64,000 nt of DNA from Planctomycetota bacterium (lineage in GTDB: Bacteria; Planctomycetota; PLA2; JAEUHO01). The DNA is taken from positions 1-64,000 of the forward strand of contig CBDCWP010000043.1 in NCBI GenBank assembly GCA_965223505.1, in the 5' to 3' direction. The first letter of the stretch is position 1; each line of letters starts with the position of its first letter. The notes under the pieces were generated by a model. That model worked only from the letters and a program-made list of their open reading frames with translations, made no database searches and was not told the origin of the DNA. A program made the translations under genes and the position numbers. Positions 10,939-47,938 of the stretch are shown here, piece by piece.

Positions 10939-11037
10939 GGGAGAGGATGGCGGACTGGTGTCCCCCTCGGTCTTCAAAACCGCTGTGTCGTTGGGCAACC
11001 TGCGATAGGAGGGTTCGATTCCCTTGCTCTCCCGCCA
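10939..11037 (+). tRNA. selC: tRNA-Sec (anticodon UCA)
   Basis: GGGAGAG/CTCTCCC acceptor stem, CTTCAAA anticodon loop, long variable arm with GCAA loop, GGTTCGATTCC T-arm, GCCA end; 99 nt. Confidence 0.93.
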
Positions 11038-41796: not shown

Positions 41797-43272
41797 CTAC
41801 CTCATCGGAACCACGATGTAGCGCGAACCCCGCTGATCCAGCACGCGCAACAGCACCTGCTTCAGCGTGCGATCCGCGGCGACGGCCTTGTGGAACGCCG
41901 CCGGGTCGTTGACCGGCTGGCGATCGACCTCCAGGATCACCTGACCCGCCTCGAGCCCCACGAGCGCCGCCGGGCTCGCGGGTGTTACGCGACGGATGAG
42001 AACACCGCGCGTGATGTCCACGCCCAGCTGCTTCGCCGCCGTACGCGTCATCGGCTCGACCGAGATTCCGAGATCGGTTGCCGGCGTCGCAATGGCGGCG
42101 TCGCCTGCGCCCGAAAGCGCGGGACGCGTTCCGAGCGACACCGTCAGCGTGCGCCGCCCGCCGTTGCGAATGATCTCGAGCTCGACGTTCGAGCCCGGCT
42201 TGCGCAACGCGATCTCGTTGCGAAGCATGCCGGAGTCACGGATGAGCATGTCGTCCAGGCCGATCACGATGTCGCCGGGCAGCACGCCGGCCTTCCCGGC
42301 AGGCGACCCTTCGTTCACGTCCGCGATGACGGCGCCGCGTGCCTCGTCGCTCCCGAAGGAGCTGGCCAGCTCCGGCGTCAGATCCTGGACCGTCACGCCC
42401 AGGAAGCCGCGCACGACCGAGCCGCCGTCCTCGAGCTGCTTGCGGATCGCCTTGGCGAAGTTGATCGGAATCGCGAACCCGATGCCCATGTTGCCGCCGC
42501 TGCGGCTGTAGATGGCCGCGTTGATGCCCACGACCTCTCCGTGCAGGTTGAGCAAGGGGCCGCCGGAGTTGCCCGGGTTGATCGCCGCGTCCGTCTGGAT
42601 GAAGTTCTCGTAGTTCGCAAGGCCGACGTGCGTGCGTCCCTTCGCGCTGACGATGCCGGACGTCACCGTTTCGCTCAGCCCGAACGGGTTGCCGACCGCC
42701 ACGACCAACTCGCCGACGCGCAGCCGGCTGCTGTCGCCCAGCGGGAGATGGGGCAGCTTCTCGCCCTCGATGCGAATCAAGGCGACGTCCGACTCGGGGT
42801 CGGCGCCGACGAGCTCCGCCTCCAGCTTGCGTCCGTCATGCAGCCGCACGTGGATGTGCTCGGCATCGTCGACCACGTGGTTGTTCGTCATGATCAAGCC
42901 GTCCGAAGACACCAGGAAGCCCGAGCCCTGGCCCCGGCGAAATCGATGCGGGCTCGGCTGCGGCGTCGGCTGGTGCGGCAGCTTCTCGAAGAACCGTTCG
43001 AACGGGCTGTCACGGAAGAAGTCGAACGGATCCTCCATCATGAACCGGTCGAGCGGCAGCGGCGTCTCGACCGCCTTCGACTCGACGCTCACGTACACGA
43101 CGGCGGGAACGGCCTTCTCGGCGACGCGCGAGAAGCTCGCGCTCAGGGCCTGCGCGATGCTCAGATCCGACGACGCGCTTTCGTCATCCGTGCGGTCGTT
43201 GCCGAACGCAGGGACGGCGACGGCGAACAGCGCGATCAGGCCCGCGATCACGCCCAGGTTTCTGTACAACAT
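41797..43272 (-). CDS. DegP/DegQ (HtrA) serine endoprotease with two PDZ domains
   Basis: GSGF, TNNHVV, SDVAL, FIQTDAAINPGNSGGPL. Confidence 0.95.
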   Translation of the reverse strand: MLYRNLGVIAGLIALFAVAVPAFGNDRTDDESASSDLSIAQALSASFSRVAEKAVPAVVYVSVESKAVETPLPLDRFMMEDPFDFFRDSPFERFFEKLPHQPTPQPSPHRFRRGQGSGFLVSSDGLIMTNNHVVDDAEHIHVRLHDGRKLEAELVGADPESDVALIRIEGEKLPHLPLGDSSRLRVGELVVAVGNPFGLSETVTSGIVSAKGRTHVGLANYENFIQTDAAINPGNSGGPLLNLHGEVVGINAAIYSRSGGNMGIGFAIPINFAKAIRKQLEDGGSVVRGFLGVTVQDLTPELASSFGSDEARGAVIADVNEGSPAGKAGVLPGDIVIGLDDMLIRDSGMLRNEIALRKPGSNVELEIIRNGGRRTLTVSLGTRPALSGAGDAAIATPATDLGISVEPMTRTAAKQLGVDITRGVLIRRVTPASPAALVGLEAGQVILEVDRQPVNDPAAFHKAVAADRTLKQVLLRVLDQRGSRYIVVPMR

Positions 43273-43443
43273 GGCATTACTCCTTTCTTTGTTGGGATGA
43301 CGATGAAATGCGCACGTCCGCCGCGGTCGTGATCCACACGGGCGAGTGCGACGCCGGGCGAGCAGTTCGCGGCGAGACGTGCGCGGGTGTGCGGTGAGGG
43401 ATGGGCGGCGGCAGTGACGGCGCCGCCGCCGCGAGCAGGTTGC

Positions 43444-43890
43444 CTACTTGCCCTTGATCTCGATGCGCTTCGGCATCACCTCGGCGACCTTCGGCAGAAC
43501 GATGTGCAGCTGGCCGTGCTCAGCGCTCGCCTTCACCTTGTCCCCGTCCACGGGAACGGGGAGGCGCAACGCGCGATGGAAGGCGCCGCCGGCGCGCTCG
43601 AAGCGGTACCAGCGGGTGTCGTCCTGCGCCTGCGGGCGCTCGCGCTGACCCGAGATCTCGAGCCGGTCCTTCTGGATCGAGAGGTCGATGTCCTTCGGGT
43701 CGATGCCGGGCAGATCGATGAGGACCTCGATCGCCTCGGGCGTCTCGACGACGTCCATCGGCGGGATCCAGGTTTCACTCGTCAATCCGGCACCCGTGCC
43801 GAGATCGAAAAGGCTGTCGAACAGACGGTTCACGCGCATGGGAACAGCGGCGAGACCGTTGCTGTCGCGTTTGGATGCGATCAGGTTCAT
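43444..43890 (-). CDS. Hsp20 small heat-shock protein
   Basis: W.PPMDV.E, DLPGI, I.G.R, ER..G.F.R...LP, G.L.I.LPK. Confidence 0.92.
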   Translation of the reverse strand: MNLIASKRDSNGLAAVPMRVNRLFDSLFDLGTGAGLTSETWIPPMDVVETPEAIEVLIDLPGIDPKDIDLSIQKDRLEISGQRERPQAQDDTRWYRFERAGGAFHRALRLPVPVDGDKVKASAEHGQLHIVLPKVAEVMPKRIEIKGK

Positions 43891-43960
43891 CGGAGTCCTC
43901 CAATCTTGCATGTTGGTTGTTCGATGGGCGGCGGGACCGGCCCGCCGAGAACCCGGCATC

Positions 43961-43975
43961 GCAACGAATGTGCCA
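43961..43975 (-). promoter_or_regulatory. Sigma-54 promoter of hsp20-degP
   Basis: Minus strand TGGCAC-ATTCG-TTGC, an exact -24/-12 consensus. Confidence 0.8.
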
Positions 43976-44030
43976 GACACGGTCACGCCTCGTCCGATGC
44001 GTGCCGCTCGGACGCGCGGACCGCACGGGA

Positions 44031-44076
44031 CTGTCAATCTGGCAAACCGGCGAATCCGGCGTCTGTCGATCTGGCA
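44031..44076. promoter_or_regulatory. Paired upstream activator sites (putative enhancer-binding protein sites)
   Basis: CTGTCAATCTGGCA (44031-44) and CTGTCGATCTGGCA (44063-76), each an imperfect palindrome, 32 bp apart. Confidence 0.6.
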
Positions 44077-44107
44077 GATGGGCGCTGCTGCCCCCGCTGC
44101 GCGCCCC

Positions 44108-44791
44108 TTACCCGGGCGTTGCGCCCCGCGCCTGCTTGAACGACGTCAGCCACGTGTACAGCGCGCCGCCCGGGCACTCCGTGGCCTTGAAGTCGCGGTG
44201 TCCGTGAAGCTCGCCGATCGGCACCCGGTACCGCGCGAGCTGCTGCGTCAGGAACAGCTCGACGGTCGCGAGCTGGCCGGCGGGGGGGAGCGCCTCCGTG
44301 AAGTCGCCGACCACGCTGATGCCGAGGTTGTGCTCGTTGTTCGAGCCGCCGGCGTGCGCGCCCTGAACGCTCAAGAAGCGGCCTTCGTAGACGTTGCCGT
44401 CCCGGCCGATCAACCAGTGGTAGCCGATGTCCGCCCAGCCGCGCAGGTTGCGGTGCAGGTTCTGCACGCCCTTGACCAACTCCAGGTCGGTCCGCGTCTG
44501 CATCTCCGGAAGCTCGGCGGTGTGGTGCAGCGTGATCCGTGAGATCCCGCCCATCGGGTCGTGGTTGTCCTTGAGCGACTCGGCGCCCCAGTCCGATCGC
44601 CGGAACACCCGGTATGTGGGCTTCGCCGGTGGGCGCGGCGGCTTCGGCGCCGACGCCGTGCGGACGGCGCGCGTGGGCGTGATGGGGATCGGCGCACAAG
44701 CGCCCATGGCGGCAGCGCCGGCCATCGCCAGCATCGCGCGCCGGGACAGTCCCCGCGGCGGGAACGCGTGTTCGGGAATCCGCTCGCACAT
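44108..44791 (-). CDS. N-acetylmuramoyl-L-alanine amidase (Amidase_2/PGRP), Tat signal
   Basis: SRRAML; ITLHHTA, GWADIGYHWLI..DG.VYEGR, GAHA, GHRD...TECPG. Confidence 0.9.
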   Translation of the reverse strand: MCERIPEHAFPPRGLSRRAMLAMAGAAAMGACAPIPITPTRAVRTASAPKPPRPPAKPTYRVFRRSDWGAESLKDNHDPMGGISRITLHHTAELPEMQTRTDLELVKGVQNLHRNLRGWADIGYHWLIGRDGNVYEGRFLSVQGAHAGGSNNEHNLGISVVGDFTEALPPAGQLATVELFLTQQLARYRVPIGELHGHRDFKATECPGGALYTWLTSFKQARGATPG

Positions 44792-44885
44792 CGTGGCGCC
44801 ACTGTCGCATCGGGGTGCGACGGGCGCGCGGAGCCCGGCGGCGAACGCCTCCGGGTGCTACGATCCTCACTTGGAGGACGCAGTG

Positions 44886-46610
44886 ATGAAGTTGCACGTT
44901 GTCCTGGTTGGTCTCGCCGTCCTCGCTGCGTCCCTGGGGGCCGGACCCAGCGCCGACGCCTGAATCCGTTGGAGGCGACCGATGGGGCCCGTGCGGTCCC
45001 TGGAGAGCGAGCCGACGAGTACGAACGTCGACGCCACGACGTGGGAGTCGTGGTGGGAGCTCAACCGCATCGAGTACTTCGCTCGCAGCGACGCCGGCCG
45101 TCCCGTCGAGACGGCGTCTCCCGACGCCGCCCTGCTCGACGGCAAGGCGATCGAGGACCGTGTCTGGCCGCACCTACTGAAGACCGCGAAGGGGAAGAAC
45201 GTCTTCGTCGCCGAGGCCGCGCTCGTCGCTCTCGGTCGCGTCGCGACGACCGAGCCTCGGCGCGCCTCCGCACGAGGCGTTCTCCTGCAGAGCCTGTCCC
45301 ATCGCAATCACTTGATCGCGAGGTGCTCCTCGATTGGTCTCCGGCATGTCGCCGACGATGCGTCGATCGAAGCGATGTTCGACGCCGTGACGAAGACGAA
45401 GCTGATGGACGTGAAGGCCTTCGTCGTCCTGGCTCTGGCGGCCCTCGAGCCGGAAGAGGCGGCTCCCGTTCTGCGCAAGCTCGCCGAGACCGCCGGGGCG
45501 TCACGGGAAGAGCAGGAGCTGGTTGCGGCGGCACTGATCGGACTCGCGATGTCAGGTGGGGGACGCGACGCGTCGGTGTATCTCGAGTCGTACGCGTTCG
45601 AACGCGAGAAGGTCGACGACAAGGTCCGCGCCGTCGCCGTCGAGGCGCTGGGCCGGCTTACGGATCCGACGCTCGTGGCGAAGCCGCTTCTTCGCGCGCT
45701 CGACGATCCGTGCGTCGAAGTGCGTCGCGCCGGCGCCGTGGCACTCGGCCGGCTTGCGTTCGAAGCGAGCGACGCGACCGAGTTGAAGTCCGTTCGGGCT
45801 CGACTTGCCGGCGTGCTCGACGACGACGCCGATGCGTTCGCTCGTCGGATGGCCGCGATCAGTCTCGGTCGACTGGCGGGCGTCGGCGACGGTGGCGAAG
45901 CGAGCGTTGCCGTGTTGAAGAAGACGTTGGCGGAAGGGCAAGTCGGCATGCGCGAGTACGCGTTGCTGGCCCTCGCACTCGCGGGTGCCCCCGACGTCGT
46001 CGATCTCGCTACGAAGTCGCTCCTCAGCGCGAACCCCTCGACCAGAAGCGCCGCGTCGATCGCCCTCGGCCTCGCTGGGATGCGTGGCCGCAAGGTGGGG
46101 CGCCTCGACGCGAAAGCCGTCCAGCGGGCGGATCAGCGGCTAGGTCAAGTGCTTGCCGAGGAACTCCATCCACATGTTCGCGCGTATGCCGCTCTCGCGA
46201 CCGGCATGATCGGCGGACCGAGTAGCGCGGGCCGCATCAAGCAGGCTATGCGCAAGGCCGAGACGCCCGAGGAGCGCGCCTACGGCTTGCTGGCACTGGC
46301 GCTGACCGCGGATCGGGATGCCGCCGACGAGGTTCTGAAGTACATGCGTCCCGAGATGATGCGCAACGGCTTCGTAGCTTCCCATGCGATCTACGCACTG
46401 GGGCTGACCAAGGACCGGCGCGCGAGTGTGTTCGACGCGCTCATGGAGCGCGCGACAAATCCCTCCGACATGTACGTGCAGGCCGCGTCGATCACGGCGC
46501 TCGGCTACCTCGCGAGCCGCGAGCGTTATCCGCAACGGCATCTTGTTGGCGCGGGGTACAGCTACACGCTCTGGTTCGACGTTCTCGATGTCTACTTCTA
46601 CATGATCTGA
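44886..46610 (+). CDS. Exported HEAT-repeat protein with in-frame TGA at codon 26 (candidate selenoprotein)
   Basis: GGAGG RBS, ATG 44886, signal peptide ..SADA, TGA 44961-63, then the same frame as ORF 44982-46610 with HEAT repeats (VR..A..ALG.L). Confidence 0.7.
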
Positions 46611-46792
46611 GCGCGAGAGTGGCGCGGGCGAGCGCGGTCGGGCCAGTGATCGTGCTTGCCCTCGTCCTACTCCATCGCGCGCACGCGGTACACACGGGCC
46701 AGCTCCGAGAGGCTGCAACTGGATCCCGACCCGGCGGTCCTTCGGCGCGCGGATCACCGCGTTCGGCCGTTCGTTTCGGGTAGAACGTCGCC

Positions 46793-47938
46793 GTGGAAGC
46801 CCCCGCCGACGTTTCGCTCCGTACACGGCTCGACGCCTCCGACGTGGACTGGATCGTCGAGCGGCACGGCGCGTTTCACTGCAAGGAGCTCGGGTTCGAC
46901 GCGTCGTTCCTGGACTACGTCGAACGTCCGCTGCGCGAGGCCCTCGAGCGCGCCGAGCCGAACGACCGCGTCTGGATCGCGGAGCTGGCGGGCGACCGGG
47001 TCGGCTCGATCGCCATGATCGCGAGCGACGCTCACACCGTGCAGCTTCGCTGGTTCCTCGTCGAAGCCTCGGTGCGCCGGCGCGGGATCGGTACGACGCT
47101 GCTCGAAGCGGCGCTTGGCTTCGCGCGCGAGCGCGGGTTCGCACGAGTGATGCTGTGGACGGTGCGCGCGTTGACGGACGCCGCTCGCCTGTACGAACGA
47201 CACGGATTGCGTCCGACGCTCATTCGATCCGGGCGGCAGTGGGGCGTCGACGTCGTCGAGGAGCGGTACGACCTCGAGCTCGACGAGCGCGCCGTGCTCG
47301 ACCGCGCCGAGATGGAGAGCGTTGCGCGGGGTTGGGGCCGCGTCGCGGACGCGTACGTCGAGGAGCTGTTCGACGAGCTCGAGCGAAAGCCCGCCGATCG
47401 CGAGCTGCTCGCCAGGTTCGCCGGCCGCGTGGAGCCGGGTGCGCTGGTGGGGGACGTGGGCTGCGGCCCCGGGCACGTTGCCAAGTTCCTGGCGGCGCAA
47501 GGGCTGCGAATGCAGGGCATCGACCTGTGTCCGGAGATGGTTGCCAAGGCCCGAGCGCTCGTTCCCGAAGCAGCGTTTCTTCAGGGCAACATGCTCGCGC
47601 TCGATCTGCCGCCCGGGACGTGGGGCGGATGCATCGCCTTCTATTCACTCATGAACCTCGTGCGCGACGACGTGTCCGTCGCATTGACCGAGATCGCCCG
47701 CGTCATGAGCGCCGGCGCGCCGTTGGCGGTCGCGGTACACCGCGGACGCAACGAGGTCCGGGTGGACGGGATCTTGGGGCGGCCGCTGCCGATGGTGGCG
47801 ACGCTGTTCGAGCCCGACGAGCTCGCGGCGCTCGTCGCCGACACCGGATTCACCGACATCGAAACGCGCTGCAGGCCGCCGTACGAATCGGAGTACCCGA
47901 GCGAGCGTCTCTACGTGCTGGCGCGGCGGTCCTCCTAG
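46793..47938 (+). CDS. GNAT acetyltransferase fused to class I SAM methyltransferase
   Basis: QLRWFLV....R.RGIG..L, A..LY...G; then DVGCGPGH, GIDL.PEMV. Confidence 0.85.
   Translation: MEAPADVSLRTRLDASDVDWIVERHGAFHCKELGFDASFLDYVERPLREALERAEPNDRVWIAELAGDRVGSIAMIASDAHTVQLRWFLVEASVRRRGIGTTLLEAALGFARERGFARVMLWTVRALTDAARLYERHGLRPTLIRSGRQWGVDVVEERYDLELDERAVLDRAEMESVARGWGRVADAYVEELFDELERKPADRELLARFAGRVEPGALVGDVGCGPGHVAKFLAAQGLRMQGIDLCPEMVAKARALVPEAAFLQGNMLALDLPPGTWGGCIAFYSLMNLVRDDVSVALTEIARVMSAGAPLAVAVHRGRNEVRVDGILGRPLPMVATLFEPDELAALVADTGFTDIETRCRPPYESEYPSERLYVLARRSS

Follow-up and report, generated by a model that had tools for sequence, protein, structure and literature searches.

Within the 64,000-nucleotide stretch of DNA that was analysed (hereafter the window), a single reading frame on the forward strand runs from an ATG at position 44886 to position 46610, interrupted only by one internal TGA (44961-44963), after which 548 codons follow without any other lesion. 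Both the ORF list and a reading of the frame place the true stop codon, also a TGA, at 46608-46610. A Shine-Dalgarno-like GGAGGA (44873-44878), which was counted as a full GGAGG in start-site scoring, lies 7 nt upstream of the ATG, and the 25 codons from 44886 to 44960 encode a signal-peptide-like leader, MKLHVVLVGLAVLAASLGAGPSADA, that aligns with the signal peptides of homologous proteins. The internal TGA is situated immediately 3' of the A-D-A codons with which this leader ends. A first-pass annotation of this DNA had reported a ribosome binding site, the ATG at 44886, a leader, a TGA directly after an A-x-A cleavage motif and a frame that stays open into a 542-aa HEAT-repeat ORF, each of which can be read in the sequence. 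The 542-aa ORF (44982-46610) is nested in the same frame and has no hydrophobic stretch at its own N-terminus, in keeping with the earlier statement that it is devoid of a signal peptide. It is at its ATG, 44982, that gene callers start the protein (P0002).

Downstream of the internal TGA, a flexible N-terminal tail, IRWRRPMGPVRSLESEPTSTNV (44964-45029), forms the counterpart of the motif IRFKxPGGSVPPGLREPSDP found in related proteins (alignment A1). It is followed by a HEAT-repeat alpha-solenoid (45030-46607) extending from a TTWESWWELNR motif to a C-terminal YFYMI, which was recognised both by Pfam (HEAT_2, 3e-25, 88.8 bits; HEAT, 4.7e-10) and in an AlphaFold2 model that was all-helical with a mean pLDDT of 85.3, and in which pLDDT fell below 50 at model residues 12-25 and 31-48 (the tail). 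A Foldseek search of the PDB returned only generic HEAT/ARM repeat matches, an NCBIfam search of the protein yielded no above-cut-off family, nothing came back from a look-up in a protein atlas, and a promoter and terminator scan of positions 44600-47000 found nothing. The leader had a codon-usage score of 0.45 in frame, the two remaining frames scoring -0.51 and -0.59, and the 40 codons downstream of the TGA scored 0.43; the seven codons leading from the TGA to the ATG at 44982 (44964-44981) scored poorly, at -0.63. On this reading of the frame, positions 44886-46610 would constitute one gene encoding an exported HEAT-repeat protein of 574 residues, in which the TGA specifies residue 26. Cleavage of the signal peptide after A25 would leave that residue as the first of the mature protein, and cleavage after A23, by analogy with the homologues (..A|xSC..), would leave it as the third; a selenocysteine encoded here would thus lie within the first three mature residues, on a disordered tail ahead of the solenoid.

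Sequence alignments with homologous proteins placed the TGA opposite a cysteine in 17 of 19 homologues (A1), the exceptions being P0003, whose called ORF begins just after this column, and P0021, with a gap at that point. The residues that follow read IRFKxPGGSV in the homologues and IRWRRPMGPV here. All 13 family loci carried the pattern C[IL][RT]F[KR], a further eight of eight canonical loci recovered by a pattern scan had the same cysteine, and its codon was TGC, one base from TGA, in each of 19 distinct homologue DNAs. The HEAT repeats, the TTWExWWELNR motif and the C-terminal YFY[KM][LI] are all present in the protein studied here, as are the invariant columns of A1 and a match to the phylum-wide profile. 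The homologues belong to a long-form family of Planctomycetota HEAT-repeat proteins of approximately 630-690 aa, whose annotation goes no further than 'HEAT repeat protein' and with which the protein shares 37-48% identity, a signal peptide, a Cys/Sec column followed by I-R-[FW]-[KR] and P-x-G-x-V, the TTWExWWELNR motif, the HEAT solenoid and the C-terminal YFY[KM][LI]. It differs from them in having a TGA where the long forms carry TGC, and in the absence of a Pro/Thr-rich linker of about 70 residues and an insert of about 40 residues. As the linker, the insert and the metzincin-like gene found upstream of long-form genes are all missing here, the gene is a diverged short paralogue rather than an orthologue.

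The possibility that the conserved cysteine marks a lipoprotein was also considered. In such proteins the signal peptide terminates at a lipobox of the pattern [LVI][ASTVI][GAS]C, the cysteine of which is the lipidated +1 residue. By eye, no lipobox was apparent: before the cysteine, most homologues have AWS, AES, AEP, AET, ADS or AYS, the protein studied here has ADA before the TGA, and only forms with LAC fit loosely. The sister family, moreover, has a histidine rather than a cysteine, and a lipoprotein reading was rejected.

The short form was found only in the gene described here, in P0003 and in a C-terminal fragment, P0032. An exhaustive search of 1.84 billion representative proteins identified P0003 as the only close relative (47% identity), the other short-form matches being P0002 itself and C-terminal fragments. 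P0003, available as a protein sequence only, belongs to a cluster of one member without an accession, and it begins with V-R-P, one to three residues past the selenocysteine column, which, judged from the protein sequence, is the start that a gene caller would be expected to choose if a stop codon stood there too. Searches with alignment A2 did not recover the DNA encoding P0003 from metagenome contigs, where only three loci were found (two long-form cysteine genes at 32% identity and one distant), from genome contigs, where none of 231 stretches was confirmed, or from viral contigs. A search for shorter fragments with residues 27-200 gave no match among 825 candidates, and order-wide (40 genomes) and phylum-wide (401 genomes) searches retrieved long-form cysteine genes only. 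The TTWExWWE pattern scan of genome contigs yielded 44 stretches, comprising eight long-form genes, 14 members of the sister family and 22 chance matches, with no TGA at the column in any of them. In the sister family, H-G-G-[TG]-Y follows the signal peptide in 12 of the 14 stretches, the other two being cut. Glycine at the column, which the first-pass annotation had named as evidence against selenocysteine, was seen only in this distant sister family (His-Gly) and not in the protein's own family.

The genome is equipped to decode UGA as selenocysteine. The tRNA-Sec that had been noted in the window was located at 10939-11037 (forward strand, anticodon TCA) by both ARAGORN and Rfam (RF01852, scoring 69.2 bits where the gathering score is 47), and was the only Rfam match in the window at gathering thresholds. 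The genes for SelA, SelB and SelD, which the earlier annotation had suggested looking for, are all encoded in the genome (SelA, 436.7 bits; the SelB wing domain, 56.6 bits; SelD, 338 bits), SelD as a selenocysteine-containing form with an in-frame TGA of its own. An in-frame TGA is spanned by a Pfam domain in at least 16 further genes; these represent 16 of 20 candidates of the UxxC/CxxU type, with 14 above the curated cut-off, and several of the 16 look exported, judged by their N-termini. A general reassignment of UGA was rejected, TGA being the terminator of 477 of the 1237 long ORFs.

We also considered whether the TGA is an error of assembly or base calling, the true codon being TGC. The genome is a 44-contig assembly, and the depth of the public contigs at the site is only about 4-5, in addition to which contigs hide minor variants. 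Nevertheless, the identical TGA was present in separately assembled contigs from three runs of two samples (X1 and X2 from sample S1, X3 from sample S2), with no differences over positions 44866-45137. Although run X1 may be the window's own source, an erroneous base, a concern that had been raised at the outset, is hardly credible.

A genuine TGA might still be a recent nonsense mutation from TGC by which a gene for an exported HEAT-repeat protein was lost, with decay yet to reach the remainder of the frame. The codon is a single base from the TGC of all 19 homologue DNAs, and no second TGA-bearing orthologue was found as DNA in the metagenome, genome and viral contigs searched. Furthermore, a long-form copy and its protease neighbour on another contig of the same genome (C9) are frameshifted, in a region with several frameshifts, so that the HEAT family may be decaying in this lineage, or be under relaxed selection. 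Such a stop, however, would need to have struck the one conserved cysteine codon, where just 1 of the roughly 142 single-base changes that create a stop in this gene falls, and the 574 codons contain no other lesion, unlike the C9 copy. The ORF of P0003 starts at the same place at only 47% identity, suggesting an old and maintained feature. Even a newly arisen UGA would probably be read at least in part as selenocysteine anyway in a cell with SelB, tRNA-Sec and a consensus-fitting hairpin. A nonsense mutation is accordingly improbable in our estimation, though it has a further argument in its favour in that the hairpin downstream of the TGA is unspecific.

This hairpin, a candidate bSECIS element, occupies positions 44979-45003 (forward strand, -11.8 kcal/mol), its apical loop lying 26 nt after the TGA. 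The stem-loop GGGGCC/CGUGC/GGUCCC claimed in the first-pass annotation is present at 44984-45000, 20 nt past the TGA; a lower stem (CCG/UGG), separated from the upper stem (GGGGCC/GGUCCC) by a 2-nt bulge (AU), extends it to 44979-45003, and the apical loop, CGUGC, is at 44990-44994. The alternative structure offered there, CCGUUGG-AGGCGA-CCGAUGG, does pair, but only with two G-U pairs. The consensus quoted in a 2026 review of prokaryotic selenoproteins specifies an apical loop of 3-9 nt with a G among its first two nucleotides and an upper stem of 4-16 bp, located 16-37 nt after the UGA with a minimum free energy of -7.5 kcal/mol or lower (PMC13188914). The hairpin agrees with it in all four respects, having a loop of 5 nt whose second position is a G with a U next to it, a 6-bp upper stem, a spacing of 26 nt and an energy of -11.8 kcal/mol.

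The specificity of this agreement is low. Our implementation of the published bSECIS model passed 28.9% of 2000 ordinary cysteine codons and 26.2% of 477 true TGA stops, but no more than 10 of the 17 validated selenoprotein genes. Taken in its entirety, the 76-nt stretch folds unremarkably (z = -0.6), with 52 of 200 shuffled sequences folding as well. Among control positions, 3.5-3.8% gave an equally stable hairpin with a GU loop (the figure for 2474 randomly chosen coding positions in the same genome was 3.5%), as did 7.2% of 2000 sequences that recode the same peptide synonymously; 36.5% of these recodings had some hairpin of this stability. A GU-loop hairpin at 20-33 nt was seen in all 16 Pfam-validated genes other than SelD, this criterion having been picked after the positives had been seen; 15 of those 16 loops read GU followed by C or U, and the loop here reads GUG. 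Folding at this place is also seen in the cysteine homologues, of which 5 of 19 reach -11.8 kcal/mol or lower and 10 of 19 reach -8 or lower, with hairpins that sit in other registers. RNAalifold detected no hairpin shared by the family among 15 sequences (-0.52 kcal/mol), and the pairs of the hairpin form in 50.4% of cells, no better than in slid controls (26-58%). The hairpin is thus weak evidence for selenocysteine, because some 29% of ordinary cysteine codons pass the model and the cysteine homologues fold there too.

The same region contains a possible alternative start, comprising a GGAGG at 44971-44975 and an in-frame ATG at 44982-44984 (forward strand), 6 nt beyond it and seven codons past the TGA, that lies inside the hairpin. 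From this start the working gene would produce a HEAT protein without a signal peptide, leaving the upstream 25-codon ORF as a relic or a short leader peptide that terminates at an ordinary stop. A GGAGG so placed precedes only 0.94% of 14104 internal in-frame ATGs, and in none of the 17 validated selenoprotein genes is this combination seen in the 20 codons that follow the TGA. The start is also the one selected by gene callers for P0002, and the codons between the TGA and this ATG are those with the score of -0.63. Against this, each of the 17 homologues with a complete N-terminus has a signal peptide, the residues flanking the ATG on both sides belong to the conserved tail motif, and the ATG itself is buried in a hairpin of -11.8 kcal/mol. 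The upstream ORF, in addition, retains its Shine-Dalgarno sequence, ATG, hydrophobic core, A-x-A and good codon usage, which would be unexpected of an old relic; if the change was instead recent, the internal Shine-Dalgarno sequence and ATG would be coincidental under a re-started gene as well. We consider internal initiation decidedly improbable, and it and a nonsense mutation remain unlikely even when taken jointly.

The UGA at 44961-44963 is most likely read as selenocysteine, because it sits exactly where relatives carry one conserved cysteine. The proposal of the first-pass annotation, that this codon specifies selenocysteine in an exported HEAT-repeat protein, finds its main support in that column (17 of 19 sequences in A1, 13 of 13 loci, and TGC in all 19 DNAs), and we assign it a probability of roughly three in four, insertion itself being inferred from these comparisons. 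Codon 26 would be read by tRNA-Sec and SelB, with SelB recruited by the hairpin at 44979-45003, whose apical loop is 26 nt downstream of the UGA, and selenocysteine would replace the single conserved cysteine of the family. Such a gene may have originated by one TGC to TGA change in a diverged, linker-less paralogue, in a host that already decodes many UGA codons as selenocysteine. The Pro/Gly codons that follow the cysteine in this family readily fold into hairpins, which may have made the change easier to tolerate.

The annotation had not recognised this as a described selenoprotein family, and no HEAT-repeat selenoprotein was found in the literature searched (PMC4807772, PMC13188914, PMC12013277). 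The term 'HEAT' is absent from the main text of the 2026 review, which covers over 110 families of prokaryotic selenoproteins (PMC13188914), and from the deep-Sep paper (PMC12013277), though the family tables and supplements of either could list one, and it is likewise absent from the table of planctomycete candidates, S9, of PMC4807772. If selenocysteine is inserted, the bacterial selenoproteome would gain an exported repeat-scaffold protein of non-redox fold, with selenocysteine beside the signal-peptide cleavage site, a placement that was not found described in these portions of the literature. The gene would also illustrate how a single step can convert a cysteine codon to a selenocysteine codon when a hairpin is already encoded by the peptide motif downstream, and would offer a way into the function of a Planctomycetota HEAT family that has no name, of which the single conserved cysteine (histidine in the sister family) is probably the active residue. 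It is also a further example of a gene shortened by gene callers; as they drop the signal peptide here, the protein would be misfiled as cytoplasmic. Were either a nonsense mutation or an internal start correct, this would simply be a broken or a re-started gene. We regard the protein as a probable new selenium protein, and not as a revolutionary one.

The neighbours of the gene are a divergent Amidase_2 gene and a GNAT-methyltransferase gene. In nine of 13 loci of relatives, a gene for a metzincin-like protease, with HExxHxxGxxH and a C-terminal WCGxC, lies upstream; no such gene is upstream here, and an intact paralogous protease of this genome is encoded on another contig. A solitary Cys/Sec that ends a flexible tail, with histidine in its place in the sister family, would most resemble a metal-binding residue or one engaged in thiol/selenol exchange, and its target may be the protease encoded upstream of the long-form genes in relatives. 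Extending this, selenocysteine could act as the N-terminal 'warhead' of an exported scaffold, serving on its flexible tail as a selenolate that binds a metal site, or exchanges with it or with the C-terminal WCGxC of a secreted metzincin-like protease. It would then be a selenium counterpart of a cysteine switch or tether, lying outside any thioredoxin-type fold, and would have arisen in one step since the PGGxVPPG codons of the family form a suitably spaced SECIS-like hairpin already. The internal Shine-Dalgarno sequence and ATG could then yield a selenium-independent, non-exported product when selenocysteine insertion fails. This proposal is speculative and, as a whole, rather improbable.

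Compared with selenoproteins of the SelB/bSECIS type, the archetype of which is FdhF of Escherichia coli, the gene has in common a UGA aligned with a conserved cysteine, a hairpin 16-37 nt downstream with a G in the first two loop positions, the presence of SelA, SelB, SelD and tRNA-Sec, and its splitting by gene callers. Its product looks exported, as do those of several validated selenoprotein genes of the same genome, whose exported UxxC proteins of thioredoxin fold include AhpC/Redoxin and Thioredoxin_7 members. Unlike the UxxC selenoproteins of thioredoxin fold, however, the HEAT protein is neither a thioredoxin fold nor a recognised redox enzyme, and has no partner cysteine near the selenocysteine and no UxxC/CxxU motif; relative to known bacterial selenoproteins, it would carry selenocysteine in a disordered tail, beside the signal-peptide cleavage site of a HEAT solenoid. 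Thioredoxin reductase, a known flavoenzyme, has its selenocysteine in a C-terminal GCUG tail, paired with an adjacent cysteine. Both proteins would bear the residue on a flexible terminal extension and not in a folded active site, whereas here it would be N-terminal, without a partner cysteine, in a protein with no recognisable catalytic domain. Latency or inhibition of metalloproteases by a terminal ligand is known from the 'cysteine switch' of MMPs and ADAMs, and from the N-termini of TIMPs and serralysin inhibitors. A lone cysteine-type residue on a flexible terminal peptide is common to these and to the protein described here, and in relatives the gene adjoins that of a metzincin-like protease; this resemblance is a lead only, and the gene described here is not beside a protease gene.

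The first-pass annotation had described a ribosome-binding site, a leader, a TGA and an open frame, and direct reading of the sequence bore this out. On the + strand, a Shine-Dalgarno-like GGAGGA (44873-44878) precedes an ATG at 44886 and a 25-codon leader (MKLHVVLVGLAVLAASLGAGPSADA), which runs into an in-frame TGA (44961-44963), after which the frame is unbroken until a stop at 46608-46610. Automated gene calls place the start at ATG 44982 (542 aa), and hence the leader is lost from the called protein. Pfam assigns HEAT repeats to the product (HEAT_2, 3e-25), and an AlphaFold2 model from a 20-sequence alignment (mean pLDDT 85.3) placed the start of an all-helical solenoid at about residue 50, with residues 12-25 and 31-48, flanking the TGA-encoded position, disordered. 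Foldseek returned generic HEAT/ARM proteins and nothing more specific. The gene for this short paralogue is a solitary one, flanked by an Amidase_2 gene that diverges from it and by a GNAT-methyltransferase gene. Genes for a DegP/HtrA protease bearing two PDZ domains, for an Hsp20 and for an Amidase_2 protein whose leader (RRAMLAMAGAAAMGA) is twin-arginine-like form an envelope-stress-like run on the other strand, further upstream (41797-44791).

A word-indexed search retrieved 24 homologues, including the window's own ORF. The closest, P0003, is of the same short form (542 aa, about 46-47% identity); further homologues of 660-689 aa (37-41% identity) were found in Planctomycetota assemblies, annotated merely as HEAT repeat proteins, together with a few more distant matches. 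When aligned with the read-through protein, 17 of 19 homologues carried Cys at the TGA column, the other two being P0003, which begins just past the column, and P0021, which is gapped there. The Cys codon was TGC in all 19 distinct homologue DNAs, so that TGA is one transversion away; around 142 single-base routes to a stop exist in the gene, only one of which falls at this codon. The motif following the Cys is I-R-F-K-x-P-G-G-S-V-P-P-G in the family and I-R-W-R-R-P-M-G-P-V in the gene under study, and the pattern C[IL][RT]F[KR] was present in 13/13 loci of related genomes and in 8/8 additional long-form loci found by a pattern scan of species-representative genomes. No second conserved Cys was found in the alignment of 19 homologues. 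We consider it probable, at roughly three in four, that the UGA at 44961-44963 is read as selenocysteine (Sec).

That the TGA is a sequencing error is highly improbable, as the site was identical, with 0 differences, in contigs assembled separately from three public runs, which represent two samples of a single study, albeit at a depth of about 4-5, in contigs that would hide rare variants, and with one run possibly being the source of the window.

The host assembly (44 contigs, 5.15 Mb, 92% complete) encodes SelA, SelB and SelD, the SelD gene itself having an in-frame TGA, and tRNA-Sec lies at 10939-11037 of the window. A screen for in-frame TGA codons with coding potential on both sides yielded 189 candidates, 86 of which were not better accounted for by the opposite strand; the gene under study fell below its 12-codon flank threshold. 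Twenty genes with UxxC- or CxxU-like contexts were picked from the 86, and in 16 a Pfam domain spanned the TGA (14 above the curated cut-off), including AhpC/Redoxin, Thioredoxin_7/_2, CMD (AhpD-like), DUF3179, deiodinase-like (with EF-hands) and FG-GAP domains (e.g. loci L060-L079). The organism is therefore selenoprotein-rich, with a large selenoproteome. TGA still serves as a stop, ending 477 of 1237 long ORFs, relative to 685 for TAG and 75 for TAA, in a genome of 67.4% G+C. In high-GC bacteria TGA is usually the commonest stop, and the lead of TAG here is unusual for such an organism.

A candidate bSECIS hairpin (44979-45003, + strand, -11.8 kcal/mol) comprises a lower stem CCG/UGG, an AU bulge and an upper stem GGGGCC/GGUCCC, its apical loop, CGUGC, starting 26 nt past the TGA. 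All 16 Pfam-validated genes (SelD left out) have a hairpin that begins 20-33 nt beyond the U of UGA and carries GU in its apical loop, mostly as GGUC, GUC or GUU, and the hairpin of the gene under study likewise fits, although this criterion was set after the positives had been seen, and its loop is GUG where 15/16 validated loops, read by eye, have GU followed by C or U. Among 2474 random coding positions, 3.5% had a GU-loop hairpin at least as stable, compared with 3.6% for 2500 Cys codons, 3.8% for 477 true TGA stops and 7.2% for 2000 synonymous recodings of the same peptide, whilst our implementation of the published bSECIS model passed 28.9% of ordinary Cys codons versus just 10/17 validated genes. 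The Cys homologues fold at the same place (5/19 at -11.8 kcal/mol or better, 10/19 at -8 or better) because Pro codons pair with Gly codons within PGG..PPG. Given the low specificity of the model, the post hoc criterion, the GUG loop and this folding, hairpin support is weak, being compatible with Sec and not proof of it. In the 19 Cys-homologue DNAs (L021, L022, L030-L042, L082, L083, L085, L108), the codons of PGGxVPPG are self-complementary (CCN GGN GGN ... CCN CCN GGN), and fold into hairpins as stable as -18.8 kcal/mol some 26-28 nt past the Cys codon, several with GGU in the loop; the homologue DNAs showed no structure shared in register across the family. A single base change could thus have created a UGA that a usable hairpin already followed.

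The same change might instead be a simple nonsense mutation, which we regard as unlikely, or the working gene might start internally at ATG 44982, which is less likely again. A complete GGAGG (44971-44975) lies 6 nt ahead of this ATG, an arrangement found at just 0.94% of 14104 internal ATGs and, within 20 codons past the TGA, in 0/17 validated selenoprotein genes; the seven codons from the TGA to the ATG also include rare Arg codons (score -0.63). Conversely, this ATG sits within the hairpin, the tail motif continues across it, and the leader retains its Shine-Dalgarno sequence, ATG, hydrophobic core and codon usage (0.45 in frame versus -0.5 and -0.6 in the other frames); were the mutation recent, the internal GGAGG and ATG would be coincidental under these alternatives too. 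P0003 begins V-R-P, 1-3 residues from the TGA column, a start position that would fit a stop codon kept at the same site. Also weighing against Sec, frameshifts interrupt both the long-form copy of this genome, on contig C9, and the protease gene that precedes it; the HEAT family may be decaying in this lineage.

That copy (C9:8981-12506; locus L021, C9:9000-14000), carrying DADSCIRFKKPGGSVPPGL, is broken by a 1-base insertion near L021 2017-2024 (ATGGGGTCGTGTC), and the match of the metzincin-like gene ahead of it to a relative's protein is spread over two frames; either the operon is decaying or the assembly is locally wrong. In 9/13 relatives' loci a metzincin-like gene (HELGHFLGLYH, C-terminal WCGxC) precedes the long-form gene on the same strand; the protease (HExxHxxGxxH), with a conserved W-C-G-x-C...G-R tail, is directly upstream in L030, L032, L034, L035, L037 and L039. 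An intact 616-aa lipoprotein paralogue of it (C21:477393-479243; L124 894-2744) has no HEAT gene downstream. Lacking both linker and protease neighbour, the gene under study does not count as orthologous to the long-form genes. A Planctomycetota sister family (L094, L099, L100, L102, L106, L111, L115, L117-L119, L122 and L123, the last two on a single contig) has a signal peptide, A|HGGTYRGPGDTVPP, a Pro/Thr/Gly-rich linker and GPDL-TTWEFWWEFNKEPYLNLK, with His at the mature N-terminus (A|H-G-G-T-Y-R-G-P-G-D-T-V-P-P) versus x-S-Cys in the long form; MAFFT placed its Gly under the Sec column and the His one residue earlier. Such a solitary residue (Cys, Sec or His), placed at the end of a flexible tail on an exported protein, may serve in metal binding or in thiol/selenol exchange.

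Full-text literature searches found no HEAT-repeat selenoprotein; 'HEAT' occurs 0 times in the main text of a 2026 review and of the deep-Sep paper, and such a protein is absent from table S9 of PMC4807772. Apart from TGA conservation across organisms, for which the one observation is the start of the P0003 protein just past the column, the gene passed the selenoprotein tests run on it. Read with Sec, the gene would work in the same manner as known bacterial Cys/Sec-pair selenoproteins decoded by SelB.
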